Assembly: GCA_030390025.1 (NCBI GenBank)
Contig: CM059432.1
Location: forward strand, 31,684,001-31,748,000
From: Squalus acanthias
Taxonomy: Eukaryota
Direction of reading: 5' to 3'
Length of the DNA stretch: 64,000 nucleotides
The notes under the pieces: model-generated
Seen by the model: the letters and a program-made list of their open reading frames with translations, nothing else
Told to the model about the DNA's origin: nothing
Databases searched by the model: none
Shown here: positions 2,070 through 26,045 of the stretch, piece after piece
Numbering within the stretch: position 1 is the stretch's first letter
Layout: the number at the start of each line of letters is the position of its first letter
Translations under genes and position numbers: made by a program

Positions 2070-2394
2070 AAAGACTTGCGTTTATATAGCGCCTTTCACG
2101 ACCACCGGATGTCTCAAAGCGCTTTACAGCCAATGAAGTACTTTTGAAGTGGAGTCACTGTTGTAATGTGGGAAATGCAGCAGCCAATTTGTGCACAGCA
2201 AGGTCCCACAAACAGCAATGTGATAATAACCAGATAATCTGTTTTTGTTATGTTGGTTGAGGGATAAATATTGGCCAGGACACCGGGGATAACTCCCCTG
2301 TTCTTCTTCAAAATAGTGCCATGAGATCTTTTACATCCACCTGAGAAAGCAGATGGGGCCTCGGTTTAACGTCTCATCTGAAAGACGGCACCTC
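2070..2394 (-). mobile_element. Deu-domain SINE (SacSINE1-like), 3' part; 5' part lies at 15260-15397, split by the provirus
   Basis: Reverse complement matches the intact + strand copy at 62542-62995. Removing the provirus and one CCTC restores ...AAAGACGGCACCTCCGACAGTGCAGCACTCC... Confidence 0.85.
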
Positions 2395-2970
2395 TGTAGA
2401 ATTCGCAATATATCGCGATTTTATTAATAAGGAGAAAAACACAGAGTTTCGTTCAAACAGCTTTTATTTCAGCAGAATGCTGTCAGGTTTCAAAGTGGAC
2501 ACAAGCAGCTTGTAAAATGGCCGCCGCACCTCGTGGCGGAACATTCTAGACTTTTCGACAGGCAGACAAGATGGCGTTCCAATAAACATTTGTGCAAGAT
2601 CGATTAAGACTCAGCACATTGAAGATAATACACGAGACATCATGGGTTTACAGTATACACATAAATACTGAAATCGGTCTCCCAGGTACGAATGAAAGCT
2701 ATTGTACCAAGTAATCAAGAGCCCATCCAAAGACATTAATATGTAAAATCCCAACGACTCTACGATGAGAGAGCCGTTAGCGGGTAGTTACAGAAAACAC
2801 TTGGAAGCCCCAAAACCCCTCCAGGGAGAACACCGACCGATTAAACAATGGGAGAAATATTAACAGGTACTCAGACATTTACGAGTAGCCCCGAAACCCA
2901 TTAAAAACGGAGATCACCCTATACAAGACATTTGAGCGCCAAACCCTAACAAAAGAAAAGACATTAAGGT

Positions 2971-3004
2971 TGGGCGGGAAACGGAAGATTTTGTACTATA
3001 ATTA
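2971..3004 (+). promoter_or_regulatory. Putative LTR core promoter: GC box, ETS-like site and TATA-like box
   Basis: TGGGCGGG (2971-2978), ACGGAAG (2981-2987) and TATAATTA (2997-3004), followed by a pyrimidine-rich initiator-like tract. YY1-like AAAATGGCCGCC and AAGATGGCG motifs lie upstream in U3. Motif inference only. Confidence 0.5.
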
Positions 3005-3856
3005 CAAGCTCCAAACCGTCCATCTCTCTCTTATCCTCTTATCTTGCTGGTGTTCATCCTCGTGGCTGCTCCTGTGCTCTTGACTCGCCGTCTTGTTCCT
3101 GCTTGCCTCGTGTCTCTTTTAAAAGACTGTTGAACTTTGTGATCCGCTCGGATCTACCTCGTGTCGTGTCGCGAAGACCTGTGTAGAACTGGGCTCTGAA
3201 GCCTTGAAGCGGGCGCACCATTCCGATAAGTCGGTAAACGGTGTCGGAACCGAAGGCCCAAGACGAGATGAGATGAGATGAGATGAGATGAGAAGAGAAG
3301 AAGACCATACTTATCGCCACGGTCAGTAAGCCCCGACCGCGCCTGTAGGTCGAATAGACATTTTCCTTGCCAGGAAGACTTCTTTGAGTTCTACAGAACT
3401 GACACAGGAAGACTCTTCTTCGAGTTTTATCGAACCGGTGTGAGGGCACAGGAAGACTCTTTTTTTGAGTAGAGTCGGAACTCCGAGGACAACACAGATC
3501 TTCATGACAGCAGACGTTCCAGCCTGCTAGCCGGAGCAGAACGAGTAAACAAGTGGGGCCAGGAGACCCCCTGATCGACACGTGGGTGCTGCGGTGAAAA
3601 ACATCCGATCAGAGTTTTCGGAATTCTCCGAGTTATCACGAGTGGTGAGCATGAGTCTCGAATCCTACGAATCTAGCTAGGACAGATATTGATAGGGGAG
3701 GGTTTCAAGTATTAAGGATAATTGTAATGTGTGCCCCCATTTACGGTGTGTCATTCGTTCCTCGTTTCCCTGAAATTAGTTACATAACTGCGTGTAAGAT
3801 TGTACTGTCATGAATCTGTGCTTATGACATGTATTTCGTAATCTTAAGTATTATGC

Positions 3857-3862
3857 AATAAA
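3857..3862 (+). terminator. Putative LTR polyadenylation signal (3' LTR copy at 15007-15012)
   Basis: The only AATAAA I found downstream of the TATA-like box within the LTR. Confidence 0.5.
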
Positions 3863-4109
3863 GATTTTCCATTTCGTACCATTCAACCGAGTCTACCTGA
3901 GTTTCATCTCCATTACTGCTCTCGCATCTAAGTCCAGTGTCTAGAACCGTAAGGGCGAGTGGGTCGAACCACTCACAGGTGTGTCTAGTGCTCCCAGACT
4001 GGCTGGAGACCAGAACAGGCAATAAGGCCTAAACCCGCACTAGCATCCAGGCTGCACAGAGCCACACGAATCTCACAGGCTGAGAGACGGTCAGAAACCC
4101 TTACAGAAA

Positions 4110-5915
4110 ATGGCGACCGCGGCAGGACACTGGCAGCGAGAGGGTAGTGTGTTAGACTTTGGTGTGAATGTACGAAATGTTATGCAGGAAAAGATAGCAG
4201 ATTATGTGTTCGGAAAGGTAAATCTAACTAAGAAATGGATAAGTGACCTGTTAGCGGATAAGAGTCCACTAGAGGCAGCCGAGAGGTGGACAGATAGTAA
4301 GGAACATAAAAAGACAGTCGAGAAAGCAGTCTGGTTAATGTGTTACAAAAGGCAGGTCCAGATTTCAAACCAAGTCATTACAGCGCAAACAGCTCGGATC
4401 AGGCATTTAGAGGAGGAAATGGATGAGAAGGTCTCTGGAGGGGAGTTGCTCATTAGGAATTTAAGTGTGCTGCACCAAGAACGCCAGGAAATCACCAGTC
4501 ACCATAAAACAAGGATAGATTACCTCGAGTGCCAGGTCACTGAGGCAAAGTTAAGTGAGGGCAGACTAAAGGAACGATGTGCCCGCCAAGCTGCCCAGAT
4601 AAGAACCCAGGAAGAGAGCTTAACGGGGGTTAGGGCGGCATATAAGTTGTCCCTTGAGGATAAGTTTCAGGGGGCCGATCATAGCGCCTGCCAACAGGAG
4701 ATAGAGCACCTTAAAAGGGCCGTGAACAAAGCGCACGGCATGGTGTGCCTTATCAGTCCGTCAGCACACCAGCCGCTAGTAAATGAGGAGTTTCAGAAAT
4801 CCCCACCAAGTAAAGCAAAGGAAGTATTGGCCACTGCGCCCTCCACGCCACCCAGCTATTCGGAAACCTGGGTAAGGGAGGAAGTAGTGGAAGAAACGAA
4901 AGAGCCCACTGAGGGAGAAGTGGAAAAGGGACCGTTGTATCCGGTAACGGGTATAAAAAGGGGCCCAAACAGAAACGGGGAGGAAGAAGGGGTTCTCCTC
5001 AACCAGCTTGTGTTGCCTCACAGCTCACACCAGCTGAGAGTTATGATAAATCACGTACGGAAGCTGACCGAGTCAGACGACCCTTCCGTACATTTCAGAG
5101 AAATTGAGCAAACCGCAGCCATCAACGGCTGCGATGATGGGGAAACAGCAAAAATACTGTTATTTTCGTTAGGCAGTTCAATCCTTCAGTGTCTCTCGGA
5201 CGAGAGCAAGAGGGGAACCAAGACTTATGAGGCATTGAAAAATGAGGTCCTAGAAGTGTTGGGGGCGGACGATGAAGGTCCGTTTGCTAGAGTGGGACAG
5301 ACAGTGCAGATGGAGGGAGAACCCCCGAAGGTTTTTGCCGACAGGCTGTGGCCAGTATATCAGCGCAGCTGTCCAGGTGCGCCAGAGCGCGACGCCGTGG
5401 ACGGCGCCGGTTTAAATCATTGGCTCAGGTGTATAGTAGCCAACAGTTTGCCAGCCGTCAGAGAACAGGCAAAGGCGTGGTTTGATCCCAATGACCCCAA
5501 CATTACGGAAGACTCGGTCTTGAATCGACTCACGATAGGATATCGCAATATCAGGGGTATGGGAACACGTCCCCTTAAGGGAAAAGTACATGAGGTACGA
5601 CCCGCAGCCCCGGCTCAAAGGGAGTGGCATCAGGAGGGTAACCGCGCCCCGCAGGCAAGTAATGCTTGTTACGGGTGTGGGAGGACAGGGCACTGGCGCA
5701 AGAACTGCAGGAACCCTTGGAAGGATTCCAGGGATAAAAATCCCGCAGCCCGAGCCCAGATGCCTGTCTCTGTTAGGGAAGCTAGTGCACCCACCCCTCC
5801 CGACGACCTCGAATCAGTGTTGGGAGCCATGCGCAACTTCATGAGTGCGCATGGAAAAGTGGCGGTTGCTACCGGCCCCGTAGGTGCCGCAGGACCGTCT
5901 AACCAGACCCAATGA
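4110..5915 (+). CDS. gag: Gag polyprotein (601 aa)
   Basis: Open ORF with strong Kozak context (AAAATGG), an N-terminal coiled-coil-like region, a PPSY motif (4848-4859), a putative capsid region and a CCHC knuckle CYGCGRTGHWRKNC. Ends TGA at 5913-5915. Confidence 0.92.
   Translation: MATAAGHWQREGSVLDFGVNVRNVMQEKIADYVFGKVNLTKKWISDLLADKSPLEAAERWTDSKEHKKTVEKAVWLMCYKRQVQISNQVITAQTARIRHLEEEMDEKVSGGELLIRNLSVLHQERQEITSHHKTRIDYLECQVTEAKLSEGRLKERCARQAAQIRTQEESLTGVRAAYKLSLEDKFQGADHSACQQEIEHLKRAVNKAHGMVCLISPSAHQPLVNEEFQKSPPSKAKEVLATAPSTPPSYSETWVREEVVEETKEPTEGEVEKGPLYPVTGIKRGPNRNGEEEGVLLNQLVLPHSSHQLRVMINHVRKLTESDDPSVHFREIEQTAAINGCDDGETAKILLFSLGSSILQCLSDESKRGTKTYEALKNEVLEVLGADDEGPFARVGQTVQMEGEPPKVFADRLWPVYQRSCPGAPERDAVDGAGLNHWLRCIVANSLPAVREQAKAWFDPNDPNITEDSVLNRLTIGYRNIRGMGTRPLKGKVHEVRPAAPAQREWHQEGNRAPQASNACYGCGRTGHWRKNCRNPWKDSRDKNPAARAQMPVSVREASAPTPPDDLESVLGAMRNFMSAHGKVAVATGPVGAAGPSNQTQ
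4111..4128 (+). other. Primer-binding site, tRNA-Arg(TCG)
   Basis: TGGCGACCGCGGCAGGAC is the 18-nt reverse complement of the 3' end (...GTCCTGCCGCGGTCG-CCA) of vertebrate tRNA-Arg-TCG as I recall it. It sits 5 nt (GAAAA) after the LTR. Confidence 0.85.
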
Positions 5916-8900
5916 CTAGAGCCCGCGCAGCCCGTCTACCTGTGTCCGCTCAGCTATGATGCGTGGAAGCGACCCCTGGTGGAAATGGAGGTAGAGAAAC
6001 AGAAGGGTAGTTATTTGTTAGACACGGGAGCTTCTTGCACCGTGATTCATACAGATAGCCCTTTTGACTCACCGCTATCTACCAAGGTCCCATTCACATT
6101 AGCGGGGTTCACGGGAAAAGAACAGGCTGGCGCGTTCTCCTTTCCGCTATCCATTCGTTTGGGGGCACTTCACATCAAGTGGAAGTGCATATTGATGGAA
6201 TGGCAGGAGGGGGGTGGAAGAGGTATCCTCGGGTCCGATCTTCTATCAGGACACGGGATCCTCGTGGACCTCAGAAATCATTGTCTCTGGGGGGCTAAGA
6301 GTGAAAAAGGCGAGGTAGTGGTAATTCCGGGGGAGGAAGGAACAGGGGTCCTGTGTACCATGCAGCCATCCGGAGGCTACGACCTCGGGCTTATGGTCGC
6401 AGATGTCCCAACGGACATGCAAACGTACGTGTCAGATAATATGCACGCGTTTGCAACCCACAAGCACGATTGTGGGAGGGTTACCGGGTTTGAGGTCAGC
6501 GTAGATGGGGACCCCATGACCCGGCCCCAAAAGCAGTATAACTTCCCCAAAGAAGCAGAACCCGATATGGAGACAGCAATGTCCTCCTTGGTGCAGCAGG
6601 GCGTGTTGAGGCCAATAGCCACACACGTGAACTCCCCATTATGGCCGGTTAGGAAGCCGGATAATTCGTGGAGGGCCACGGTGGACTACAGAGTCCTTAA
6701 CAGTAACATTCCCGCCTGCGCGCCCACGGTAGCAGCAGTTGCTGACCTAATAGGGAGTATCCCAGCGTCCGCGACCACGTTCACGGTGCTGGATATCTCG
6801 AACGGTTTTTGGTCCATCCCGCTGCGGCGAGAGGACCAGTACAAGTTTGCCTTTACTTTCAAAGGACAACAGTACACATGGAACTGTCTGCCACAGGGTT
6901 TCCACAATAGCCCCAGTATTTTCCATCAGTGTATGGCAGGAAGTTTAAAGGAGTTTAGTCAGCCCCATCAGATAGTGCAGTACGTGGATGATTTGCTCCT
7001 GTTTACGGATTCAAGGGAGGAGCATGGACCACTGCTGGCCGAGTTATTGGAGCTGCTAGCGAGAAAGGGTTTTAAAGTAAACCCTAAGAAAGCACGTATC
7101 GGTCAGCAGGAAGTAAAATTCCTGGGACTGACCATTCGCGCTGGGGAAAGAGCCATAGATAAGGCTAGGAGGGAGTCGGTGCAAGAGTTACCGATTCCTA
7201 ACAACATAAGGGGTGTGAGGTCCTTCTTGGGACTGACCGGTTACTGCAGGGATTTTATCGAAGACTATGCGGCCACAGCGGCGCCGCTCCTCCGACTCCT
7301 CCATAAGGGAGTGGAGTGGTCTTGGGACGAGGGCTGCCAAGCAGCCTTCGAGAAGTTAAAAAGGGATCTGCAGACCGTGCCAGCCTTAGGGGCCATAGAT
7401 GGGGGGAAGGAGTTTTTCCTGGAGGTAGCTGCCAGCGGGGACAGCTTGAGCGCTGTGCTGCTCCAAGAGCGTCACGGCAAGCTGAGGCCGGTTGTCTATT
7501 CGTCCAGGGTGTTAACGGATGTGGAGAGAAGTTTCTCCAATTGCGAAAGGCACCTTTTAGCCACGCATTGGGCTGTGAAAAGATCAGCGATCTTCACAGG
7601 GCTCTCTCCCATCACTCTCCTCACCCACCACACACCAACTAAGATGCTTCTAGATGGGAGGATTAAAGATGGGACTGTAAGCAGCGTGCGTATTGCGCGC
7701 TGGACCCTTCTTCTTTCCCAGATGGATCTTAGAGTAAAAGGTCTTTGCGAGCCCAGGCTTGCGGCCAATTTGGTATACCCCGGTACAGCCCACCGATGTT
7801 CGGTGGAAGGGGTGTGGGACGTCAACATAGGTTTGCGGGCCGGGATACATCCCACTGGGCGCGAGATTTATGTTGATGGTTCTAGCACAGTATCTGCTGG
7901 CGAACGACTCACAGGGTGTGGAGTTTATGACCCTGCGGCAAACCTTGCCCTGGCGATCAAGCTCCCTAGCACCATGAGCGCGCAGCAGGCTGAGCTGTCT
8001 GCTGTGGTGTACGTTGTTACCCACCCAGACCTTTTCCCAACCCCATACACGATTTGCTCGGACAGTATGTTCACATGCAATTCGTGTACGGAATACCTGG
8101 CCATTTGGTCCCGCCGTGGATACACCTCCGCGGACGGGCGACCTTTAACGGTGAAGCCCTTGCTGGAAAAGATCCTAGCAGCAGTAGGGGAGGAAGGGGA
8201 GATTTTCATCCATAAGGTGAAAGCTCACTCCTCCACAGAGCCCCGTGGGGAGGGCAACCAGCAGGCGGATGCGCTAGCCAGGGAAGGTGCCCGCAACGGC
8301 ATTTTCTGGGACCCCTATGGGACCAGACCCATGGCAGTGATCCAAGGCAGGGACGGGAATCCCGGGAACTCCAGGGTAGCATTGCCCCTGGACCTTAAGA
8401 CCGTCCAAACCCAGGATCCCGCCCTAAAAGCAGTCCTAAAAACCATTGCTGAGGGGAAGCAAGTAGAGGGTCCGTACAGTACGGCAACCCTCTCAGTTAA
8501 GGAAGGCATGCTGTTCCGCGAGGAGCAGTGGGTTGTGCCGCAGCAGCACAGGAGGGAATTCCTCCAGTTGGCTCACGAGGGACCAGGGGCAGGGCACCCC
8601 GGGCCCGAGGTTACCTGGCAACGGGTAGAGCAAGCGGGATGGTGGCCAGGGCTCAGGGAACAGGTCCGAGAGTTCTGTGCAAACTGTCTTGTGTGCGCTG
8701 CAAACAACCCAGACCCCCAGAAAAGGAAAGTGCCCATGGGGCACGTAAGAAGGGTAGAGGGACCATGGCAGTCGATGCAGATCGACTATATAGGGCCCCT
8801 GCCCACCACCCAGGGAGGCTATAAATACTGCCTCGTCTTGGTGGATGTGTTTTCCAAGTGGGTGGAAGCCTTCCCCTGTCGAACAGCTACGGCACTGGGT

Positions 8901-10442
8901 ACTGCAAAAATCTTGGTCCGGGAAGTGTTCTCGCGGTGGGGACTCCCCCGTTTTGTGGAGTCAGACCAAGGGAGTCATTTCACCGGCCAGGTGATGCAGA
9001 ACACCCTCATGCTTTTGGGCATTGAAGGGAAGTGGCACGTAGCACACAATCCCCAGTCATCCGGGATTGTTGAACGCATGAACCGGACCCTGAAGGAGAA
9101 ATTGAGGAAAGAGACTAGGAACTCGCCCCAAAAATGGGCGAAAGTTCTGCCTTTAGTCCTCATGGGGGTCCGGGCCAGTCAGTCAAAAAGTACGGGGTAC
9201 TCCCCGCACGAGGTGATGACTGGGAGGCTCATGCGAACCCCCACCCATGTGCTAGCGCCGGTGCTCACTGAGGGTCAGCTCCAAGAGATAAGCAGGGACA
9301 AGTTCGCCCAGACCCTCTTGGAGCGCCTAAAACAGGTGTATGAGCAGGCGGCTGGGAACATGGGAAGGCAGCATCAGGGCAATCGCCTGTTGCCGGAACC
9401 CCGCAAAACGCGGGAGTGGGAAGTAGGAGACCAGGTTATGGTCAGAAACTACGCCAGAGTAGGGAGTCTGGAACCACTGTATATGGGACCCTACAATATT
9501 GTAGATAAGGCGAGTCCCATGGTATACGCCGTAAAGGTACCTCGGCGCAGTAAGTGGTTCCATGTAAACCAGTGCAAACTGTACAAGCCAGGTGCGCAAG
9601 GGAAAACCACAGGGGTAAACCCTGCGAGTGGGGACGCGCAGCCCCAGGTAGGACCACAAGGCACACAGGCAGGCAAAGCAGCTTGCATCAGGGGAGGAGA
9701 CATCCTGGAAAATTGTGAAACATTTTTGTGGGGTTGGGAGTCAGATGAGGGAGAGTTCCTGGAACTCGAGTCAGATGAGGATAGTGATGAGGACGAGTGG
9801 GGATCGGGGAACGCAAGGGTCGCCCCCGATTCAGGTATAGGGAGGACAGGGGCTGCAGATAGAGATCCACACAGGGTGGACACCGAGGCTGCAGGTCCCG
9901 AACACAGGAGGGAGGAGCTAGGGGAGGCGGAGCCAGCCGCTGTGAGACCACAGGGAGTGACGGTGAGAACCTCAGAGCCCGAGCCGCCCACCTTGAACGT
10001 CCTGCCCTCGGGGGAGGTAGGGATTGCGAGTGAAGGGCCGCCTGCTGGGCCGAGCAGGGCAGTGCCACAAGCTGCAAGTCCCGAGGTCAGGGAGGCGGAG
10101 TCAGGGGAGGCGGAGCCAGCGACTGTGGTGGGACCACAGGTCGTCCCGGCGAGAGTCTCGAACCCCGGTCCGTCGGTCCTGGGATTCCTGCCCCCGACAA
10201 CTCCTCGTAGGTCAAGTAGAGAACCCCAGCCCAGGAAGATGTGGGTATGGCCCCAGACGGTCCCAAGGCGTAGACTCAAGGTTAAGGCAGCCCAGATAGA
10301 ACCCAGTCCCATCGCGGCAGCAACAGGCTGCGGCAGATCAGAGGAAGGGGTCAGTGCAGCAACAGGCTGCGGCAGATCAGAGGAAGGGGTCAGAGCCCTC
10401 CCACCGTCGGGAAGAGCTCGCAGCAGCCTTCTCAGAATTTAA
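5916..10442 (+). CDS. pol: Pol (PR-RT-tether-RNase H-IN plus C-terminal extension), in frame with gag
   Basis: Protease LLDTGAS (DTG 6021-6029). RT LPQGFHNSP and YVDD (6981-6992). Degenerate RNase H LEVAAS (about 7419). Second RNase H IYVDGS..SAQQAEL..SDS..KVKAHS..GNQQADALA (7866-8290). Integrase HHCC, D(8784)-D(8964)-35-E(9072) and GPY module. No stop between 5916 and 10439. Confidence 0.96.
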   Translation, partial: LEPAQPVYLCPLSYDAWKRPLVEMEVEKQKGSYLLDTGASCTVIHTDSPFDSPLSTKVPFTLAGFTGKEQAGAFSFPLSIRLGALHIKWKCILMEWQEGGGRGILGSDLLSGHGILVDLRNHCLWGAKSEKGEVVVIPGEEGTGVLCTMQPSGGYDLGLMVADVPTDMQTYVSDNMHAFATHKHDCGRVTGFEVSVDGDPMTRPQKQYNFPKEAEPDMETAMSSLVQQGVLRPIATHVNSPLWPVRKPDNSWRATVDYRVLNSNIPACAPTVAAVADLIGSIPASATTFTVLDISNGFWSIPLRREDQYKFAFTFKGQQYTWNCLPQGFHNSPSIFHQCMAGSLKEFSQPHQIVQYVDDLLLFTDSREEHGPLLAELLELLARKGFKVNPKKARIGQQEVKFLGLTIRAGERAIDKARRESVQELPIPNNIRGVRSFLGLTGYCRDFIEDYAATAAPLLRLLHKGVEWSWDEGCQAAFEKLKRDLQTVPALGAIDGGKEFFLEVAASGDSLSAVLLQERHGKLRPVVYSSRVLTDVERSFSNCERHLLATHWAVKRSAIFTGLSPITLLTHHTPTKMLLDGRIKDGTVSSVRIARWTLLLSQMDLRVKGLCEPRLAANLVYPGTAHRCSVEGVWDVNIGLRAGIHPTGREIYVDGSSTVSAGERLTGCGVYDPAANLALAIKLPSTMSAQQAELSAVVYVVTHPDLFPTPYTICSDSMFTCNSCTEYLAIWSRRGYTSADGRPLTVKPLLEKILAAVGEEGEIFIHKVKAHSSTEPRGEGNQQADALAREGARNGIFWDPYGTRPMAVIQGRDGNPGNSRVALPLDLKTVQTQDPALKAVLKTIAEGKQVEGPYSTATLSVKEGMLFREEQWVVPQQHRREFLQLAHEGPGAGHPGPEVTWQRVEQAGWWPGLREQVREFCANCLVCAANNPDPQKRKVPMGHVRRVEGPWQSMQIDYIGPLPTTQGGYKYCLVLVDVFSKWVEAFPCRTATALGTAKILVREVFSRWGLPRFVESDQGSHFTGQVMQNTLMLLGIEGKWHVAHNPQSSGIVERMNRTLKEKLRKETRNSPQKWAKVLPLVLMGVRASQSKSTGYSPHEVMTGRLMRTPTHVLAPVLTEGQLQEISRDKFAQTLLERLKQVYEQAAGNMGRQHQGNRLLPEPRKTREWEVGDQVMVRNYARVGSLEPLYMGPYNIVDKASPMVYAVKVPRRSKWFHVNQCKLYKPGAQGKTTGVNPASGDAQPQVGPQGTQAGKAACIRGGDILENCETFLWGWESDEGEFLELESDEDSDEDEWGSGNARVAPDSGIGRTGAADRDPHRVDTEAAGPEHRREELGEAEPAAVRPQGVTVRTSEPEPPTLNVLPSGEVGIASEGPPAGPSRAVPQAASPEVREAESGEAEPATVVGPQVVPARVSNPGPSVLGFLPPTTPRRSSREPQPRKMWVWPQTVPRRRLKVKAAQIEPSPIAAATGCGRSEEGVSAATGCGRSEEGVRALPPSGRARSSLLRI

Positions 10443-10741
10443 AGGGGGCTGCCCTGAGAACGGGCGGCGCTGTACAGGAATAAGTTTAGGATAGGTTTCT
10501 AAGTTCATAGTTTAAGGTTAAGAATAAGTTTATAGTTTTAAATCAGGTTAAGTTTGTAGTTTAATTTTAACAGAAAATGGTAAAATGATGGGAGTTAGAG
10601 ATAGGTTTAGTTAAAGTTTATTTAGTGAACATTGAAGTTTACGTGAGGCGAGGTCAGGGGACCCGCTCACTCTTCACAAAAGCCAGAGACTCTTGCGAGG
10701 CTGGCTACCTCATTCTATCTGATCACAGGAACCAAGGAAGG

Positions 10742-13093
10742 ATGGAACGAATTCTAGTATTGCTCGCGGCAATCGGATGTGGATTGGCCTATCGAGGCCG
10801 CACCAAGGATGTCGTGGTGTTTGGATGCTCCGGGGACACGGCCCCTATCGCGGTGGATGGGACCGGAAGACGGGAGGCTGAGGAGACCACCACCTATTTC
10901 CACAAGGGAAGGTGGCCAGGATGGCTGGGAACGAACTCAACGGAGTATTCCAGCACATCGGGGTTTGCCTACCAAGAGACTTCTTTAATGTGCCCCAAAG
11001 TAAGGATCATCGCACCCAGGATCAGCGTCACCGTCGGCAAACGGATTTGTTTGACTTGTAGTGGGAATGTCCCATTGAGCCGATGGTGGTGGCTGCGAAA
11101 GCTGAGCAAAAACATGAGGAACTCTTCGGTCGAGTGGGAACGACTGGGTAATAATACCCATCGGACAATTACGGGGACAAACGGACAAGTGAGAGTCTGT
11201 TGGGACAAATGGTGGGAACCGGATGAGGGAATTTATGTATGTATGTGGGGGTCAAAGTACGTTTGCCCCAAAGGCATCTCCATATTTTTCATTAACCAAT
11301 GGCAGGATAACGGACAGGGGATGAGGTGGGATGCGAGCACCAGGGGGTGCGGAGCCCCATTCTCCCCGATCCCAGTAAATGCCACTGAACTCATTACGCG
11401 CCCACGCAAAGCCCTGCCCACGATTCCGGTGGTTCTAGCTGAAGAGGAAGGGTGCCCTAAAACTAGTAAGGGACCCGGGAATGGTTTGGTACTGGTCCCC
11501 ACAGACCAGATACTATTTCAGGGGGTACATTACGCGGTGGCCTCGGTGATTTTAAATCTCACCGAGGTGCGGTTACCAGAGTGGTGCCCCAAAAAGACGG
11601 AACAGTTGTATCAGGTCCTGTTGACCAAGATGTTCAGACAATTTTACGAATTCGATTTCGCGGAAATTGATAAAACAAGTTTGTACACCGCACCACATGA
11701 AGTTTTGGATCAAGTAGGGAGGCAAAGAAGGGGTGTAGTGAACGACGTGTTCACTGCTTTTAACACGGGTACATCTGTGGTCAACGCTCTAGACAGTGTG
11801 GAGCTGCAGACCCAGATTAATGGTCTAAAGACGCAATTAAAAGACATTCTAACAGATGAGAATAAAGTGGTAGGGTCGGGTTTACACGAGGACCAAGCCA
11901 TGACTCTCCATTTAAAGGAAATTATAGCAGAGCTAGAGAAACACGCGAGAACGGTAAATGCCCTGATTAGGGAAGATCGGAATGCATCCGATCAAGCTGC
12001 GCAGAATGAGGTGTGCGTGCTTTACGGGGCGTGGTTACTGGGCGAGGGCCGCAGTAATTTGGAGGATTTAAAACAAGGTTTGGTCCCGTCCTGGATAAGT
12101 AACAAACACCTGCGGACGCTCCACCCTTTTCAGAACGCATTAAGTCCGTGCCAGCTCAGGCTAGCTTCAGAAGCATACCCAGTCCCCGTGGACTGCGGAC
12201 GATCAAACCATACTATCATGGGTATAGTTTTACGTATGCCGGTTTTGGGCGACACAGCAAAGCCCGCCCCGGTGTATCGGGTAGAGAACATTGGTGTCAT
12301 TCAGGGGGGAGCCCACATTCGCTATGCAGCGGTTCCACCCTACGTCATCCGCTGGGAGCAAACGATGACAGGTACAGATCTCTCTGGTTGTCGTGGCAGG
12401 GGAGCACACATAATACTGTGTCCCCAGCACTTGAATGCCTTTTCAACACCACAGTGCGGGTTCAGAACGGCTGGCGCCAAGTCCATGAATTGCACCATGG
12501 AGGCAATGGCACAAGATCATGTGCCTCCGCAGGTAGCATACATCGGGGGTGGAACATATTGTGTTACCACTGCAGCGCAACACTACCAGCATGGAAACCG
12601 TAGCCGGTGTCCGGTGAGTGCCAGCAGTTTCTGTTTCAAACCCAGGGCGGAAGTTCAAGTAGCACAACAGCGAATTGTCCCAATCCCTGAACCATCCACT
12701 GTTCATCTAACAGTAAAAGAGAATTTCACCGACTTGCAGCGATTCGTCGCGCATTTCGGACACCTCATTCCCCCTCTCCCTGAACACCTCACCAAGCTTT
12801 TAAAAGCCGTCGCGGTGTCACAAAAACATTTTTACACACTAGAGCAGAAAACTGTCGAAATAGGAACAGACATTCTGGATATAGTAATTCCACCGTGGTG
12901 GAATCTGTTCACCAATATTGAAGTGCCGTCATGGATCAGGATAGCCTCCCACATTTTAGTCGTATGCCAAGTTTTTATTGTAGTGTACCTATTGGTCGTA
13001 CATTGTAAAAGAGACAAACGCCTCACCAAGCATGAAAACACGGGAGAGTGGCGAGAACGTTACGTGCGCGTGCACGATGAAAGCACCGTGTAA
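10742..13093 (+). CDS. env: Env-like class I fusion glycoprotein (783 aa) with N-terminal Ig-like domain
   Basis: ATG 10742 in strong context just after a candidate acceptor (..CTATCTGATCACAG at 10728). Signal peptide MERILVLLAAIGCGLA, N-glycosylation sequons, furin site RQRR (11720-11731), fusion-peptide/heptad region, Cys-rich region, TM helix at about 12941-13000 and a short tail. Confidence 0.88.
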   Translation: MERILVLLAAIGCGLAYRGRTKDVVVFGCSGDTAPIAVDGTGRREAEETTTYFHKGRWPGWLGTNSTEYSSTSGFAYQETSLMCPKVRIIAPRISVTVGKRICLTCSGNVPLSRWWWLRKLSKNMRNSSVEWERLGNNTHRTITGTNGQVRVCWDKWWEPDEGIYVCMWGSKYVCPKGISIFFINQWQDNGQGMRWDASTRGCGAPFSPIPVNATELITRPRKALPTIPVVLAEEEGCPKTSKGPGNGLVLVPTDQILFQGVHYAVASVILNLTEVRLPEWCPKKTEQLYQVLLTKMFRQFYEFDFAEIDKTSLYTAPHEVLDQVGRQRRGVVNDVFTAFNTGTSVVNALDSVELQTQINGLKTQLKDILTDENKVVGSGLHEDQAMTLHLKEIIAELEKHARTVNALIREDRNASDQAAQNEVCVLYGAWLLGEGRSNLEDLKQGLVPSWISNKHLRTLHPFQNALSPCQLRLASEAYPVPVDCGRSNHTIMGIVLRMPVLGDTAKPAPVYRVENIGVIQGGAHIRYAAVPPYVIRWEQTMTGTDLSGCRGRGAHIILCPQHLNAFSTPQCGFRTAGAKSMNCTMEAMAQDHVPPQVAYIGGGTYCVTTAAQHYQHGNRSRCPVSASSFCFKPRAEVQVAQQRIVPIPEPSTVHLTVKENFTDLQRFVAHFGHLIPPLPEHLTKLLKAVAVSQKHFYTLEQKTVEIGTDILDIVIPPWWNLFTNIEVPSWIRIASHILVVCQVFIVVYLLVVHCKRDKRLTKHENTGEWRERYVRVHDESTV

Positions 13094-13532
13094 TCGGAAA
13101 ATGGCGTCACTCCCGCTCGCCACGTGCGCCGCGGAAGTTTGTACTCGATCATGATTTTCAAAGACTGTAAATACGTTTGGAACTCGACATGTTTTAAGAG
13201 TTGGTGTTGATTATTTTTGGTAATGGTGTTGTAGTTAAAAATGATTGTTTGGTTTTGGGTTTTGTTTTTCCTTTCCCTGAATAAAAAATGTGAATATATA
13301 GGTGATACGAGAGGCATCGGCCTGGTTACGCCTGGAAGGAAAACAAGTGGTGTAAGTTTAAAGGCAAATAATGCCTACGGTACTATAAAATGTAATTTTC
13401 TTGGGAAATAAGGACGACGCAAAGACCCTAGAGAGTTTAAGTTATGGGATTAAATTTTCTGGATTCGGAGAAAATCGAGATAATATTGCTCACCACAATA
13501 TTTTTGATACGATAAGCGGAGTTATTCGCATC

Positions 13533-13544
13533 AACAGGAGGGAC
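13533..13544 (+). other. Polypurine tract
   Basis: AACAGGAGGGAC immediately precedes the 3' LTR. Confidence 0.75.
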
Positions 13545-15255
13545 TGTAGAATTCGCAATATATCACGATTTTATTAATAAGGAGAAAAACACAGAGTTTC
13601 GTTCAAACAGCTTTTATTTCAGCAGAATGCTGTCAGGTTTCAAAGTGGACATAAGCAGCTTGTAAAATGGCCGCCGCACCTCGTGGCGGAACATTCTAGA
13701 CTTTTCGACAGGCAGACAAGATGGCGTTCCAATAAACATTTGTGCAAGATCGATTAAGACTCAGCACATTGAAGATAATACACGAGACATCATGGGTTTA
13801 CAGTATACACATAAATACTGAAATCGGTCTCCCAGGTACGAATGAAAGCTATTGTACCAAGTAATCAAGAGCCCATCCAAAGACATTAATATGTAAAATC
13901 CCAACGACTCTACGATGAGAGAGCCGTTAGCGGGTAGTTACAGAAAACACTTGGAAGCCCCAAAACCCCTCCAGGGAGAACACCGACCGATTAAACAATG
14001 GGAGAAATATTAACAGGTACTCAGACATTTACGAGTAGCCCCGAAACCCATTAAAAACGGAGATCACCCTATACAAGACATTTGAGCGCCAAACCCTAAC
14101 AAAAGAAAAGACATTAAGGTTGGGCGGGAAACGGAAGATTTTGTACTATAATTACAAGCTCCAAACCGTCCATCTCTCTCTTATCCTCTTATCTTGCTGG
14201 TGTTCATCCTCGTGGCTGCTCCTGTGCTCTTGACTCGCCGTCTTGTTCCTGCTTGCCTCGTGTCTCTTTTAAAAGACTGTTGAACTTTGTGATCCGCTCG
14301 GATCTACCTCGTGTCGTGTCGCGAAGACCTGTGTAGAACTGGGCTCTGAAGCCTTGAAGCGGGCGCACCATTCCGATAAGTCGGTAAACGGTGTCGGAAC
14401 CGAAGGCCCGAGACGAGATGAGATGAGATGAGATGAGATGAGAAGAGAAGAAGACCATACTTATCGCCACGGTCAGTAAGCCCCGACCGCGCCTGTAGGT
14501 CGAATAGACATTTTCCTTGCCAGGAAGACTTCTTTGAGTTCTACAGAACTGACACAGGAAGACTCTTCTTCGAGTTTTATCGAACCGGTGTGAGGGCACA
14601 GGAAGACTCTTTTTTTGAGTAGAGTCGGAACTCCGAGGACAACACAGATCTTCATGACAGCAGACGTTCCAGCCTGCTAGCCGGAGCAGAACGAGTAAAC
14701 AAGTGGGGCCAGGAGACCCCCTGATCGACACGTGGGTGCTGCGGTGAAAAACATCCGATCAGAGTTTTCGGAATTCTCCGAGTTATCACGAGTGGTGAGC
14801 ATGAGTCTCGAATCCTACGAATCTAGCTAGGACAGATATTGATAGGGGAGGGTTTCAAGTATTAAGGATAATTGTAATGTGTGCCCCCATTTACGGTGTG
14901 TCGTTCGTTCCTCGTTTCCCTGAAATTAGTTACATAACTGCGTGTAAGATTGTACTGTCATGAATCTGTGCTTATGACATGTATTTCGTAATCTTAAGTA
15001 TTATGCAATAAAGATTTTCCATTTCGTACCATTCAACCGAGTCTACCTGAGTTTCATCTCCATTACTGCTCTCGCATCTAAGTCCAGTGTCTAGAACCGT
15101 AAGGGCGAGTGGGTCGAACCACTCACAGGTGTGTCTAGTGCTCCCAGACTGGCTGGAGACCAGAACAGGCAATAAGGCCTAAACCCGCACTAGCATCCAG
15201 GCTGCACAGAGCCACACGAATCTCACAGGCTGAGAGACGGTCAGAAACCCTTACA
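13545..15255 (+). repeat. 3' LTR (1711 bp)
   Basis: Copy of 2395-4105 at a constant offset of 11150, followed by TSD CCTC. Confidence 0.97.
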
Positions 15256-17146
15256 CCTCCGACAGTGCAGCACTCCCTCAGCACTGCACTGGAGTTTCAG
15301 CCTAGCTTTATGTGCTCAAGTCCCTGGAGTGGGACTATGAACCCACAACCTTCTGACTCAGAGGCGAGTGTGCTTCTGAGTGAGCCACAGCTGACACTGG
15401 AGAAATTAGGGCAGGTGACCAAAAGCTTGGTCAAAGAGGTAGGTTTTAAGGACTGATCTGTGTCTGAGTTATGAAAAAGACTGTGGAAACTTTGACTTTT
15501 CAGCTTTCAAAGAAGGAGGCGGAAAAGTGATCTTTAAAATTATATCGTAGTATGGAAATCCAGAAAATTAATTCAAACTAAATTGTGCGAATAGAACAAG
15601 GAAATAGTTTTACACCAAAAAAGCAAATTTAGGACTTATGTCAGGAGGTTCTCCTTCACACAATTAGCAAATGAAGATGGATGGGCCTAGGACACTGCAC
15701 TGAGGAACTCCTGCAGCAATGTACTGGGGCTGATGACAGTGCAAGCAATTAACCAAATTCAAGTACTAAACTAGGGTTGCCAACTCTGGTTGGACGTTTT
15801 TGGAGTGGTTTCAACGCATGACCTCCTGCCTCCAACTGCCCCGCCTCCCATTGGTCACCCCATGTGTGCATCCTGGTGACACACCGACTTCAAATGCCAA
15901 ATGGCAGGCAAGTGGATGTCGATGCTTGGTTACCCAATTGGAAGATTCTTGAATATTAATCAAACAGGCTTCTGCACCAACCCCCCCCCACCCAATTTCT
16001 TCTTTTATTCCCCTATAATCTTTCTTCATGGTCACTTGCAGAATTGCCTGGGAGATTAATAATTCCTGGAGACTCCATGACAATCTGGGTGAGTTGGTAA
16101 CCCTAATTTAAACATAGGAACAGGAGAAGGCTGTTCAGGCACTCGATCCTGTTCCACCATTTAATTAGATCTGTCTGTTCTGTACCTCAACTTCACATTT
16201 GATCCATATCGGCAGCACGTCCCAAACCCGGGACCTCCACCACATAGAAGGACGAGGCCAGCAAGCGCGTGGGAACACCATCATCCCCAAGTTCTCCTCC
16301 AAGTCACACACCATCCTTACTTGAACAGATAAAGGGAAATCGTGTTTGACAAATTTATTCGAGTTTTTTGAGGATGTAACTAGCAGGGTAGATAAAGGGG
16401 AACCAGTGGATGTAGTATATTTGGATTTCCAAAAGGCATTCGATAAGGTTCCACATAAAAGGTGATTACACAAGATTAGGGCTCACAGGGTTGGGGGTAA
16501 TATAGTATCATGGATAGAGGATTGGTTAACGGACAGAAAACAGAGAGTAGGGATAAACGGATCTTTTTCAGGTTGGCAGGCTGTAACTAGTGTTGGGGCC
16601 TCAGCTATTTACAATCTATATTAATGACCTAGATGAAGGGACCGAGTGTAATGTATCCAAGTTTGCTGATGATACAAAGCTAGGTGGGACAGTAAGCTGA
16701 GGAGAACACAAAGGGCTGGATTTTGTCTTGGGGTCGGGTTGGGGTCATGTTACCCGCATTTCGTGTTGCCCCCCCCAACTCCAGATTAATGTGGATGAAT
16801 GATGCGATTTTAACTTAATTGGCCAATTGAGTTCCAACATGTGGGAACCCATGGCCAATGAGTTATTCCAGTCTGAAAGTCGCCTCCGATGACGTCATCA
16901 TTGCTGCTGCATTTAAGGTCTGCAACAAGCCTTGCTTCCTCTGCAGGCTGCCAAGCTTTTGGACCTCTAATCTAAAGGCACCTGCAGCAGGAATGGCCAG
17001 CCAACGGCCATGGGCTGCTCCCAGGTTCCATGAGGTTGCCCTTCAGGCTTTGGTGGATGGAGCAAGAGCCAACAGGGAGGTGCTCTTCCCCTCCTCAGAG
17101 AGGAAGAAGCCTCCCTAGCAGACAAAGGCTGTGTGGGTCCATATCG

Positions 17147-17955: not shown

Positions 17956-20031
17956 TGGGTCCATATCGCCCAGGAGGTCACCTCCTTATCATTCACATGC
18001 AGAACCTGGATCCAGTGCAGGAAGAGGTTTCATGACCTTCTACGTACTGCTAAAGTGAGTATGACTTTCCCTTCACCCTCAATCTGATCCCCATTGCCTC
18101 TCCTCACCAACACTCAGCTTTAGCAACCTCTTCCTCCATATCCCACTTGACACTGACATCCATGCACCCTTACCCATTCCCTCTCCCTCTATGGTCACAA
18201 TCACCTTACTATTCGACTATGCAGCCCTCACACTCCCTATCACTGTCATGCTTTGAAAACAACTTACAACACATAGGGAGGGCCCTTAGTCTCGCCACCT
18301 CAATCCATCTTTGTCTCCTTCTAAGCATCTATGCTATGTATTCTCTACACTCACTCCTTCAATCTCACTCAAACTCCACTTGTCTCCCTCATTGCAGGAA
18401 AAGAGAGCTCACAATAAAAGGGAAAGAGCCAGGACAGGAGGAGGGCCACCCTCATTAGCCCAGCTCACCCCCTGGGAGGATGCGGTCCTGGAGATCGTGG
18501 GCGTAGAGGAGGAAATGCAAGTGGGGGACGGACAGACGGGTGCATCAGAGCAAGCTGGTGACTGAATAGTGTTCCATCTCTCTCATTGACATTGCATGCG
18601 TCGCTGATAATGAATCTGAAGCTCTAACAGATGGATTTATGATCATCTGCAATATGCAAAGTGCATGTAACCTCACATCTCTGACCCTTTCCTTTACTCC
18701 CCCACAGGACCATCGCAAGCACCCATCCCCACTAGCCAGGAGGAAGAGCCTGAGCAGACAGACTCCTCAGAGGAAGCTGCAACCTCTGAGGGCGCAGCGT
18801 CAGCAGAACTCAGCACACCCAGCACCAGCGCAGACACTCACACCTCGGTGGGACCCTCGGGACATAGTGTAGTGTTGTCACCTGGTCTATCACAGCTCAC
18901 AAGTGAGCATCAGCAGATGGTGGAGACAGGGACAGCAGTGGAGAGTCCTAGTCGGAGGGCGCAGGACTCTCCTAGCTCGGCTCAGCTGCATGTCGACCCT
19001 CTGCCTTTGGGTCCATCCATAAGATCAGCGGTGCTGGGACTCCAGGAACAGATGCAGGAGTCTCTGACAGGTTTTGTCTCCAGGGTCGCTGCGAGTGTGG
19101 AGCGAATGGAGGAATCCATAGCGAACATGAGCAGAGCCTTTGTGGAGTCATTGGCGCATGAACGCATCACCACGGAAAGGATGGCAACCTCCGTGGAAAG
19201 GATGGCTACAGTAGAGGAGAGGATGGCTACGGCTATGGAGGAGATAAGTCGCCAGAGTGCAGAAAACATGGTCATTGTTCAGAATAGACTGGCATCTCTT
19301 GAGGAGCGTTGGTCATCTATTGAACAGAGAAACCAGACCTTCATGGAAGTCCTTCTGAGTAGGACTTCCAGTGCAGATACGGGTCCCCATGTCCCCCCTG
19401 ATGTGCAGCAAGGTGCTCTCAAGCCACTTGCAAGCGCTGAGGTGGACCTGACCCATGAGAGGGATGTTGGTGGCGCACAACAAGGAGGTGGGGGCTCCTC
19501 TCCAAGCGCTCACACTTCCATGCCACTGACAGGTCCTCGGTCAGAGCCCCACCAGAGTCCGCACCCAAGTGAAATCAGCGTCTCAACCCCTGCCCAGCCG
19601 CAGGAGCAGCAGACTGTTGCCGAGCCCTCGCAGGTTCGCAACCCCAGAGGATGCCCACCAAAGGAGTCAAGACAGGAGCAGCAACAAAGTGAGCAGGGGG
19701 CCTCCACTTCTGCTGAAGCCACAGGGGAAGCACCACGTAGGAGCACGCGTAAGAGAAAGAAACTGCACAAATAGTCACAAGGGTAGTCACTTGGGTGAAT
19801 TTTGATGTGTATTGTGAAAAAGCCATCAGGTGTAAAGTTTAAATAAAAACTCTGATGGCTACAGCTGCAATTGTGGCGTCTGTCATTTCGCTAATGGGAC
19901 TTCCACAATGAGGCCTTAGGATAACTTGCAATTGTCAGTATGGTGGTCACATTGTTAGGGATCCGCTGGGTCTGGGCCATTGTCGTAGCTCTGGTAAGAA
20001 GCTGCGAGGCAAAAGTGCTTTCTTGTCTAGG

Positions 20032-21267
20032 CTAAGCAAATCTGGCCAAGATGAGTGCGTTCCTTGCATTCCGGGCAGCTATGGTCTCGCGTAATGCTGC
20101 CGCTGGTTGAGGGGCCTCTGCAAGTTGTTCGTTCTCTCTCTCCTCCTCCTCATCTGAGGAGGCTATGTGAGGAGCCACTTGGTCCTCCGGCATCTGTAAG
20201 CCACGACGCTGTGCCATGTTGTGAAGTGCACAGCAAACCACGACGATTCTGGAGACCCTGGCTGCTGAGTATTGCAGGGCTCCACCTGATCTATCCAGGC
20301 ATCTGAAGCGCATCTTCAGCATACCGATGGTTTGCTCGATTATGGCTCTGGTGGAAATGTGACTGGAGTTGTAGCTCTCCTCAGCTGCGTTGGATGGGCT
20401 CCTCAACGGCGTCATTAGCCACGTCTTCAGAGGATAGCCCTTGTCTCCAAGTAGCCATCCGTGAAGTTGGTCTGGCGGACTGAATAGCGGAGGCACACTA
20501 GACTGGCGCAGTATGAAGGAGTCATGGCAACTGCCAGGGTACTTGGCACAAACATGCAGAACTTCCTTGTTGTGGTCACACGCCAGCTGAACGTTGAGGG
20601 AGTGGAAGCCCTTGCGGTTGACAAAAATACCTGGATTGCGATGGGGTGCCTTAAGGGCCACATGTGTGCAGTCAACGATGCCCTGCACCCTTGGAAAGCC
20701 TGCCAGATTAGCTAATCCAACCGCACGCGCCGTGACACTTGCTCGATCCTTGGTGAAATGGATGTGAGTGTGCGCGATGGCAAAGAGGGCATCGGTTACC
20801 TGCGTGATGCAGGTGTGTGCGGCCGCCTGGGAGATGCTGCTGATGTCTGCTGCTGATCCCTGGAATGAGCCTGAGGCAAAAAAGTTGAGTGCGGTGGTGA
20901 CTTTGACGGCCACTGGTAAGGGTTGTCCACCTGGTCCTCTGGGCTCCAGGTCTTGTTGCAGCATTGCACAGATGTCACCCACTACCTCTCGCGAAAGTCA
21001 GAGCCACATTTGACACTGCTGCTCAGACATGTTGAGGTAGCTGACCCTGTGTCTGTAGACCCTGTTTGGGGGGTATCTCCTGCGCCGACGGCCTTCCATG
21101 CGCTGGCCCCTTCTGTCCTGTGCAGCTTCAGGTGGGTGAGCAGCAGCTTGGCGCTCCTGCTGTTGCTGCTGCTGTTGGTGCTGCTGTTGTTCATGGTTCT
21201 GCTGGTGCCGCGGCTGTTGTTCGTCCTCATCGGATACCCAGGTGGGAAAGAAATAAATGGCTCCCAT
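20032..21267 (-). pseudogene. Harbinger DDE transposase (HARBI1-like), about 411 aa with one internal stop
   Basis: Motifs [56 protein letters not shown] and CCALHN. The ORFs 20998-21303 and 20032-20982 are in the same frame, separated by TGA at 21000-20998 (likely CGA>TGA). Confidence 0.92.
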
Positions 21268-23820: not shown

Positions 23821-24110
23821 CTCAGTATGTTTCTTTTATTTTTTTACGTAAAGAAAGGCTTTATTCTCGTGGTAAAATTGTGGGAGATAAAGAACTTAAA
23901 GCAGGTTTAATTACATATTTTTTAAAATTCAGCAAAAAGTTTGTTTTACTTTGATTTTTGTTTAATGTGCTTTTTGTTCTGAGGTTTATGTGTGAGAGAA
24001 AGTTGGGGGAATGTGCAATATAATTATTTCCGGGAGAGAATAACGAAGATTTTTTTAATTGTAATTTTGTCTATTTTTGTAAAGAATTCTGCACAAATAT
24101 TGCTCACAAA

Positions 24111-24447
24111 ATGGCAAGCTGTGAGAAGAAAAAAGGTGAGACCGCGGATTCATTGGGGCCCATTGACTTCTTCTCCATTCCCCTGATTGCCCTGAACTTC
24201 GCGGTGAGGAAGAAGCTGTCTCTGTTTCTCAATCCGAGGAGTGTGGTGGCGGCGGACTGGACGGTGCTGGCCGAGGAGATGGCCTTTAGCTATCTGGAGA
24301 TTAGGAACTACGAGAGATTAGACGACCCCACCGTAAAACTCCTGGAGGATTGGCAAGGCAAGGAAGGCTCTACCGTGGGCAGACTACTGCAGCTACTCCA
24401 GAAGATAGAACGGGATGACATCCTTGAAGACCTGAAACCATCTATTG
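24111..24447 (+). CDS. myd88: MyD88 coding exon 1 (death domain)
   Basis: Reads IPLIALNFAVRKKLSLFLNPR..AADWTVLAEEM.FSYLEIRN..DPT.KLLEDWQ..TVGRLLQLL.KIERDDIL. Donor G|GTGAGT at 24448, phase 1. Confidence 0.96.
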
Positions 24448-26045
24448 GTGAGTCTCTTTTTCCTACAATAGTATATTGTTTTTTTTTTCTAATAACACAC
24501 TTGTACCTATTATTGTTTCCCCCTTGGGGGAGCACATTCTACCTCTTCTCACCCCCACCCGCAAGAGGCTGTTGCCAACCCCAATGAACCAGTCAAGTTG
24601 AAAGGATTTAACCATCCTGCATGTGGCATTCTGTTGATTAACACAGTGTGGGACGCATGGAGGTATTGGAGGTCATAGTGAATCGTAACTGTCAGTTCAA
24701 CTTAACTAGTCAACTGGGTTATGTTCATCTGGCACAGTCCATGCAATATCTAAGATAAGGTCCTACAGAGGTATATGGGAATGGTGTGGAAAAGGCAAAT
24801 CTGGAGCACCACTTTAAATTAAACCATGATTAGTAGGACAAGGGGCACAGTTTAAAACTAGGGAAAGGTAAATTTCTTCCTGATTTGATTAGAAAGTATT
24901 TTGTATAGTTGATGAGTATGTGGAATTCAATTCTGGGTAGGTTTGTGGAGGTGGGAAACTTGGAATTATTTAAAATTAGTATTTGGAGCGTCTTTATTAA
25001 TGGGTGAGCTAGGATTGGCCGAATGGTCTTCCTCATTCATATCTATCTTGTTGAGATTTTGGGTATATGAAATTTGCATTCTGGTTACTTGTTAGGTTGT
25101 GTTCTCCTTGTCGGAATGGTACATGAAGGATTATACATTAGTCTCCATGAATGTGTTTGGGGTGTGGGTTGAGGCAGGGTGGAGCAAGGGGGTTGGGAAG
25201 ATCTCTCTATCCCATGCTGACCAACCTTCTAATTGAATGGGGCTCACTGAATCAGGAACTCTTTTTTAATATATTTCTTCTTCCTAGCCCAGAGGTGCTG
25301 AAACTAATTGCTGCCCTACTGAGTTCAGCTAACTCATTTCAGACCAGGCATTGAACTTGGAACTTTCTGGTCTGTATAACTTAGTGCCACAGTACATTTA
25401 CCCACCGAACCATCTATAATGGGTGCCTTGGCTCGGCATCTATTTCCCTCTTGGCTCTGAAGCGTCTTGGGATGCTAATTGACATTAAAAGCACTATATA
25501 AATGCAAGCTTTTGTTGTTGTAAGCTTTGGCTGATGAACTTCAATGCTGTTGTAATTTCCTTGGTACATGCTGGTTGGGCAAATAATAATCTCACTCGGA
25601 AAAGGTGCGTTGGAGTGGGTATGTTGAAGGGTAAGTTTACACTACAGCTGCAGTGTCAATCTTTGTGATTTTGACAGCAGACCCTCCTCCAAACCTGCAC
25701 TCTGAGTGCCGGTAAAATTCTGGCCATTGTGTACAAAAGGTTATGGAGAGGTGAGGAAGAGTGAATGATATAATTTTACTCTTTAAACCTTAGAGTGGAA
25801 TTTCCTGTGGGGACATAATCAGGAAGTTGCACTTGAAGATACGCCCATTCGTGCACCCATTTTGCCGAGATATCTTTATACCTAAATTTCCTTCCAATCT
25901 CATTAATGTATGCTTGATCATAAAAATGGGAATAAATAATCCGGGCACAAGGAAAGCTCCAAACTTGCACCATATATTCCCTCTTTTTAAGTATGAAAAC
26001 TTTAAGTTTCAAGCCATCTAACAATCGTTTGTACACATTAGGCAC

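Follow-up and report, generated by a model that had tools for sequence, protein, structure and literature searches.

We analyzed a 64,000-nucleotide stretch of the Squalus acanthias genome (GenBank assembly GCA_030390025.1, contig CM059432.1, positions 31,684,001 to 31,748,000 of the forward strand; hereafter the window), in which a complete long terminal repeat (LTR) element at positions 2395-15255 bears an open env gene. Residues 85-186 of the encoded envelope protein (Env; numbered with Met as residue 2) are a divergent immunoglobulin (Ig)-superfamily domain, positioned ahead of a core that, from its sequence, looks like an F-type (class Ib) fusogen. The head spans ~220 residues (20-238) and includes a single Ig domain followed by a linker rich in Pro and Thr; by analogy with known envelope layouts, we think it reasonably likely that it serves the surface subunit as its attachment domain. 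The parts of Env are listed below; head family A is the type of head found in this element.

10742..13093, + strand: env, open frame of 783 codons counted from Met
10742..10792, + strand: signal peptide, a hydrophobic N-terminus (cleavage point approximate)
10796..10990, + strand: pre-Ig segment, residues 20-84, carrying Cys30; conserved in head family A, no family match
10991..11296, + strand: Ig-superfamily domain, residues 85-186, with the canonical Cys107/Cys168
11351..11452, + strand: Pro/Thr-rich linker from head to fusogen core, read from the sequence
11453..11731, + strand: F2-like segment, from a conserved Cys-Pro...Gly-Pro motif to the furin site RQRR (11720-11731)
11732..12940, + strand: F1-like ectodomain with fusion peptide, heptads and Cys-rich region
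12941..13003, + strand: transmembrane helix by hydropathy, then a short tail

The Ig signature reported in the initial annotation of this DNA is present in the sequence at exactly the coordinates given there: a B-strand Cys107 at 11057, a WWW C-strand (Trp 117-119) at 11087-11095 and D-E-G-I-Y-V-C at 11222-11242, with Cys168 at 11240, 61 residues past Cys107. We took a B-strand Cys, a C-strand Trp, the D-x-G-x-Y-x-C motif and a Cys spacing of 55-75 residues as defining Ig membership, and all four are found here. When the Env ectodomain was shuffled 20,000 times, the pattern C-x(8-16)-W-x(35-60)-D-x-G-x-Y-x-C arose in 4 cases; it occurs once in the six frames of the window. The domain probably extends past the 11003..11260 first assigned to it, to about 10991-11296, that is, from Cys85 to a G-strand-like stretch near residue 186. 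It contains four extra cysteines (Cys85, Cys104, Cys154 and Cys176) and sequons at 128 and 138; judged by strand register, the disulfide pairs are likely 107-168, 104-154 and 85-176. The CxxC at 104-107, which sits within the Ig B strand, was considered as a gamma-type isomerase motif and ruled out, as Env lacks CX6CC, the cysteine list holding no adjacent cysteines anywhere in the protein.

Database searches pointed in the same direction. In Pfam, the isolated domain matched Ig_3 as its sole family (E 0.014-0.017, 16 bits), and Ig_3 was found again in L022 and L021, two divergent Env families of the same genome, and in the homologue P0012 (E 0.004-0.009). All 60 listed of 62 matches to PDB sequences were Ig-superfamily proteins (best E 0.056), and in the ESM Atlas, Ig families were assigned at 0.88-0.90, the level of a lead, and among the 10 best matches that carry a family all 10 were Ig at 0.90. 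An AlphaFold model of the head, built from a 13-row alignment, had a mean pLDDT (predicted local distance difference test) of 49, with 50-71 over the strands. When this low-confidence model was compared with 48,161 chains, the listed matches were Ig domains or chains whose title and length mark them as antibody fragments, the best of them at Z 6.7-7.0 with a root-mean-square deviation of 2.5-2.8 Å over 86-88 residues. In these structural alignments the first aligned position is Env residue 32, which precedes the domain boundary at residue 85, and in the model a strand upstream of that boundary may complete the Ig sandwich.

Several results weigh against the assignment. The curated Pfam Ig cut-off of 30 bits was reached by none of the window domain, L021, L022 and P0012 (16-18 bits). 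No match of the head model to the 48,161 chains attained Z >=8, and values below 8 are common for unrelated models; residues past the F strand were modeled at a pLDDT below 50, with a poor G strand; and Foldseek of the model against PDB and BFVD returned nothing at E <=0.001. The family-A profile A3 had five PDB matches, the best of which fell on the non-Ig part, and the best E values over the Ig region were 0.21-0.87. A profile of alignment A1 proved unusable, because a zinc-finger fusion in P0010 led to zinc-finger matches only. Singly the tests are weak, yet all agree, and we are highly confident that residues 85-186 adopt an Ig fold.

The Ig domain is under purifying selection. Compared with L022 and L021 it is 65% and 57% identical, respectively, at proportions of synonymous difference (pS) of 0.72 and 0.80, so that synonymous sites are near saturation between the element and these two families. 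Identity to the same families is highest in the core (67-83% in fully covered segments), intermediate in the Ig domain and lowest in the flanks (44-54%). Among 9 young copies, the domain held 6 synonymous and 2 non-synonymous variants, for a ratio of 0.09. Because it has been kept under purifying selection, the domain is needed by the replicating element. Three points temper the step from there to receptor binding: the 9 young copies were the top protein-score matches, which biases their ratio down toward few amino-acid changes; the head displayed no sign of diversifying selection; and conservation this strong fits a structural role as well as it fits receptor binding.

We also weighed a structural role. 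The Ig domain might be glycosylated and locked by disulfides, shielding or stabilizing the pre-fusion trimer as a cap or chaperone, with the receptor bound by the pre-Ig segment or by F2. Strong purifying selection without hypervariable loops is what such a cap would show, its six cysteines and two sequons would suit it, and head-less relatives (P0040, the coelacanth P0050 and 22 lokiretrovirus Envs in the available part of the PMC7947760 supplement) imply that the core can enter cells without a head. A cap would however be tied to the core, whereas heads differ sharply among families over a conserved core, as expected of a module that contacts a receptor, and an N-terminal Ig domain followed by a Pro-rich linker is a known layout of receptor-binding domains (RBDs; 10.1101/2024.03.17.585361). 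We consider the cap unlikely. The attachment reading is preferred because the layout matches both the modules carried by F scaffolds (PMC11468914) and the gamma-type RBDs of variable Ig type (IgV; Hotzel). Under that reading, the head would stay with the N-terminal subunit once furin has cut, sit at the trimer tip and act as the attachment or receptor-binding domain, and its engagement would let the F1 part refold and fuse the membranes. The Ig domain itself would have come long ago from a cellular Ig-superfamily gene, diverging beyond tracing and gaining extra disulfides, and across the Env lineage the head would have been remodeled, replaced or lost.

The placement of the domain ahead of an F-like part, also made in the initial annotation, was supported by searches with the core. 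For Env residues 239-760, the first ESM Atlas match was Fusion glycoprotein F0 (0.94, 210 of 256 features shared), and a 24-row core profile found foamy-virus Env as its best PDB matches (E 0.003 and 0.019). The furin site lies at residues 328-331, and there is a single transmembrane helix. Two negative results weigh against F-type membership: Pfam PF00523 did not match Env, and no paramyxovirus F was among the 13 PDB matches of the core profile. A whole-Env AlphaFold model from the single sequence (pLDDT 33) was too poor to judge a DI/DII/DIII fold or six-helix bundle.

The initial annotation had called this Env loki-type, a label that was not upheld. By sequence, the element probably falls in a clade of snakehead retrovirus (SnRV)-like viruses: over 5 motif blocks of reverse transcriptase (RT; 114 positions), identities numbered 74 with SnRV compared to 52 with Loki-Sri, 52 with feline foamy virus and 51 with murine leukemia virus (MuLV). 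Tempering this placement, the comparison drew on rows of the PMC7947760 supplement alignment, included one loki row, was counted by eye and involved no tree. No relatives of the RT were found in viral_contigs. The complement of the primer binding site had 431 genomic matches, and 3 of the 3 examined were tRNA-Arg(TCG) by ARAGORN; a tRNA-Ser primer was ruled out, as the matched sites are tRNA-Arg(TCG). SnRV reportedly uses an Arg-tRNA primer. Many of the 100 listed sites (of 431) lie in tandem arrays with a period of ~1623 bp, and two examined array loci also hold tRNA-Ser(GCT).

Besides the best RT match, the element shares with the SnRV clade a provirus of about 11-13 kb and an in-frame stop between gag and pol. 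It differs in its readthrough context (TGA-CTAG here, UAGGGC in SnRV) and in its tail, which is short here and 136 residues long in SnRV. SnRV-like endogenous retroviruses (ERVs) are known from the elephant shark (CmiERV lineage I; PMC4422223), and the SnRV clade has been named Huo (PMC6001957, PMC12193657, PMC13517186). With lokiretroviruses the element has in common a dual RNase H and an F-like Env with a Gly-Pro opening motif and an R-x-x-R site (PMC7947760). The loki criteria of an R-x-K/R-R cleavage site and an F-like Env are both found here, and the tether and second RNase H are common to other retroviruses too. In contrast, an N-terminal head was found in none of the 22 loki Envs with a readable N-terminus (of 23 in the PMC7947760 supplement): in 22 of 22 the signal peptide leads directly to the Gly-Pro motif, which starts at residue 239 here. 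The four cartilaginous-fish genomes looked up carry no loki mark, and the words 'immunoglobulin' and 'shark' have 0 occurrences in the main text of PMC7947760 as available. Thus, the fusogen is likened to those of loki and foamy viruses, yet the element itself is probably of the SnRV-like clade.

The remaining parts of the provirus are as follows.

2391..2394, + strand: target-site duplication of 4 bp, second copy at 15256-15259
2395..4105, + strand: 5' LTR, 1711 bp, TG...CA, 4 mismatches relative to the 3' LTR
4110..5915, + strand: gag, with one CCHC knuckle; ends in TGA then CTAG, in frame with pol
4111..4128, + strand: primer binding site, complement of the tRNA-Arg(TCG) 3' end
5916..10442, + strand: pol, with protease, RT, tether and RNase H (two RNase H-like domains), integrase and an acidic Pro-rich tail
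13545..15255, + strand: 3' LTR

The element is a young, much-copied ERV with at least 150 near-identical copies in Squalus acanthias. In its own genome, all 150 scored matches to the Ig region were 97-100% identical, 64 of them at 100%, and all 57 scored matches to full-length env were 98-100% identical, both counts being minima. On general grounds, its spread would have been by reinfection. LTR divergence (t = d/2u) corresponds to ~0.5 million years at a mammalian substitution rate or ~5 million years at a shark rate, both rates being borrowed, the latter from the assumption made in PMC4422223. The sense strand of the provirus contains gag, pol and env as its only open reading frames (ORFs), and there is therefore no separate attachment gene. 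Gag and Pol are inferred from the sequence to be joined by readthrough of the in-frame TGA-CTAG, and a Pfam scan of pol identified both RT_RNaseH (E 1e-17) and RNase_H (E 2e-20), that is, a tether and a second RNase H. The gag frame has its first ATG at 4110, overlapping the primer binding site and only 4 bases past the LTR, so that the 1.7-kb LTR holds nearly the whole leader, in which an Rfam scan found nothing. Contigs from four runs guessed to be RNA covered 30 of 30 bins; none of those listed showed a leader-to-env joint, an observation that carries no weight in either direction. Downstream of the integrase, an acidic, Pro-rich tail of ~280 residues with short duplications closes pol (~9600-10442, + strand); an antisense open frame of 315 codons (9491-10438, - strand) without a Pfam match overlaps it. 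The provirus interrupts a short interspersed repeat (2340-2394 and 15256-15330; family D18) that recurs at 29679 and 53238.

We surveyed the wider Env lineage through a homologue search of 1.84 billion representatives, which gave 51 matches; 24 of these were examined, together with P0004 and P0005. Where the N-terminus and core were both visible, 7 of 9 homologues had a head and 2 (P0040 and P0050) had none. The closest homologues bearing a species name come from skate and sharks. Head type A is common to skate, sawshark and whale-shark proteins and to other families of the same genome (37-72% identity). Other heads are of other kinds. P0015, from a bamboo shark, matched Ig_3 at E 0.11 and is auto-named 'Ig-like domain-containing protein' in UniRef. 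P0037, from a Logan contig, carries a Cys-less, CD2/CEACAM-like V-set domain (Pfam E 0.0016), and its head had no match to PDB sequences at E up to 1. The heads of the frog proteins P0022 and P0049 are Ig-like by eye, with no Pfam match. Another type of head, rich in Cys, is present in P0014 and P0025; that of P0014 had no Pfam match when scanned alone. Counting against Ig-type heads as a rule, 7 of 12 isolated heads lacked an Ig match in Pfam. The P0049 cluster, from Mantella aurantiaca, has 16 members, most of 677 amino acids, with an F-type Env and a head that is Ig-like by eye, which suggests a young expansion in this frog. In addition, shark gene models P0005, P0010, P0013 and P0043 join env pieces to Niban-like, zinc-finger, cadherin-like and fbxo15 host genes; these are probably annotation chimeras, the alternative being exonization.

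Other Env families in the Squalus acanthias genome carry heads of types B, C, D and E, and at two loci (L028 and L029) integrase C-termini lie upstream of Env. Among 28 head-family pairs compared by hhalign, only B-C (E 3e-8) and B-D (E 1e-6) were significant, and 18 of 18 PDB matches of a joint B/C/D profile were Ig-superfamily proteins (best E 0.0078); on this profile evidence heads B, C and D are homologous. For A and B, the alignment brings the cysteines, Trp and E-F motif into register, yet its score (16.6 over 78 columns, E 0.036) is only marginally above those of 15 column shuffles (maximum 15.9, mean 11.9), and a single origin of all heads was not demonstrable by pairwise hhalign. In a 17-row core tree, which was midpoint-rooted and has three long branches, Ig-like heads fall on either side of the deepest split (98/97), and P0037 has as its sister the head-less P0040 (96/99), both being Logan contigs. 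These results are compatible both with a single old gain followed by losses and replacements and with repeated gains. The head is a variable module of the Env lineage, not a one-off fusion, and the P0037/P0040 pair is the best candidate for a separate, more recent capture or loss. The initial annotation had asked whether the domain might be a documented general feature of its Env family: it is indeed widespread in the lineage, but no description of it was found in print.

These observations invite a bolder and, for now, doubtful proposal, namely that in a large non-loki, non-foamy clade spanning sharks, skates, frogs and the coelacanth the F-type fusogen is a socket for heads repeatedly captured from host Ig-superfamily genes. 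The heads would then comprise the old Cys-rich Ig domain of this element, a second shark Ig type, a frog type and the Cys-less CD2/CEACAM-like V domain, alongside head-less members. If true, this clade would be a retroviral counterpart of the coronavirus S1-on-S2 design, and receptor capture would have recurred in a retroviral group with undescribed envelopes.

Two further explanations concern what the domain resembles and where it came from. The initial annotation had offered an immune decoy as an alternative to receptor binding; the domain would then mimic a host Ig-superfamily ligand of the JAM, CD2/SLAM or CEACAM type on virions or infected cells, independently of entry. The best PDB match of the whole Env is JAM-A (E 0.78), the Cys-less V domain of P0037 is more host-like, and retroviral capture of a host Ig-superfamily gene has a precedent in nectin3 of a crocodilian ERV (PMC4299795). 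Mimics usually keep a sequence likeness, however, whereas this domain has diverged so far that it resembles no single host protein (no match better than E 0.056), and it is fused to a fusogen rather than secreted. We regard mimicry as quite improbable. The other possibility is that the domain is not host-derived, having come by intragenic recombination from another virus or retroviral Env (e.g. a gamma-type RBD-C) or being a convergent beta-sandwich that bears an Ig-like motif. RBD transfer between Env groups is documented (10.1101/2024.03.17.585361), every score we obtained is sub-threshold, and no host donor was found, the structural matches of the head being 9-20% identical, which also weighs against the cellular origin that we favor. 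A host-donor search in the same genome was uninformative, as 150 of 150 scored matches were viral copies. Against a non-host source, the domain retains D-x-G-x-Y-x-C as well as the canonical cysteines of strands B and F, the disulfide between which is absent from RBD-C; BFVD held no convincing viral match; and the motif is rare by chance, as the shuffles indicated. We judge a non-host source very improbable and retain divergence from a cellular Ig-superfamily gene.

Elsewhere in the window, a DDE_Tnp_4 transposase at 20032-20997 (- strand, E 6e-38), presumably of Harbinger type, faces a 367-codon ORF at 18671-19774 (+ strand) that has no Pfam match and is possibly its partner gene. An open frame at 24024-24587 (+ strand) encodes a Death domain (E 4e-15) and is probably a host exon. 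Reverse-transcriptase frames of long interspersed nuclear elements occupy 48823-50856 and 55225-58125 (+ strand), the latter with an endonuclease and a weak GDSL-esterase match at its N-terminus, and a tandem duplication of ~890 bp (97-99% identity) lies at 58515-60070.

In the literature within reach, which excluded most subscription papers, no Ig head on an F-type retroviral Env was found. The surprise is tempered because Ig-type RBDs and host capture have already been reported for gamma-type Envs. An Ig head on an F-type Env would represent a third way of placing receptor binding on a retroviral F scaffold, the others being no visible domain (loki) and an inserted RBD (foamy). The findings further suggest that an F-type Env occurs in the SnRV-like branch too, which bears on whether such an Env is ancestral in retroviruses. 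They also name a ~100-residue domain that could be expressed alone to seek a cell receptor, which would be the first for a retrovirus of cartilaginous fish.

The closest precedents for the head are the gamma-type Envs. In these, an IgV-like RBD precedes a Pro-rich region, and one was captured from host SIRP (10.1101/2024.03.17.585361). Both the RBD-C class (murine leukemia virus, MLV; feline leukemia virus, FeLV; Env-Pb1) and the SIRP-like RBD of Env-Dbi share with the shark protein an N-terminal IgV-like domain followed by a Pro-rich linker, and the SIRP-like class, for which host capture was shown, also has the B-F disulfide of the shark domain (same source). In the available text of that study, 'shark' occurs 0 times and 'SnRV' once, as a tree label, so the present group is not covered there. 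Gamma-type Envs differ in having an orthoretroviral core with CX6CC linked to a CXXC of the surface subunit, whereas here the core is F-type without CX6CC and the Ig domain has no recognizable host donor. The closest precedent for the core is foamy-virus Env gp130 (PDB 8RM0/8RM1), likewise an F-type retroviral fusogen with a built-in RBD (PMC11468914). The view taken in the initial annotation, that F proteins lack such a domain since attachment is left to another protein, holds for paramyxoviruses but not for this foamy Env. Its RBD is nonetheless different: it has a novel fold and is inserted, as a large block, between the subunits and immediately ahead of the furin site (PMC11468914). The Ig head is likewise separate from F's own Ig-fold domain II, which belongs to the core. 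F has been described as a minimal scaffold that, without a separate attachment protein, takes receptor-binding modules at its N-terminus, as in coronaviruses, or between its subunits, as in foamy viruses (PMC11468914); compared to the foamy RBD, the shark head is an N-terminal Ig domain, placed like the head of the coronavirus spike.

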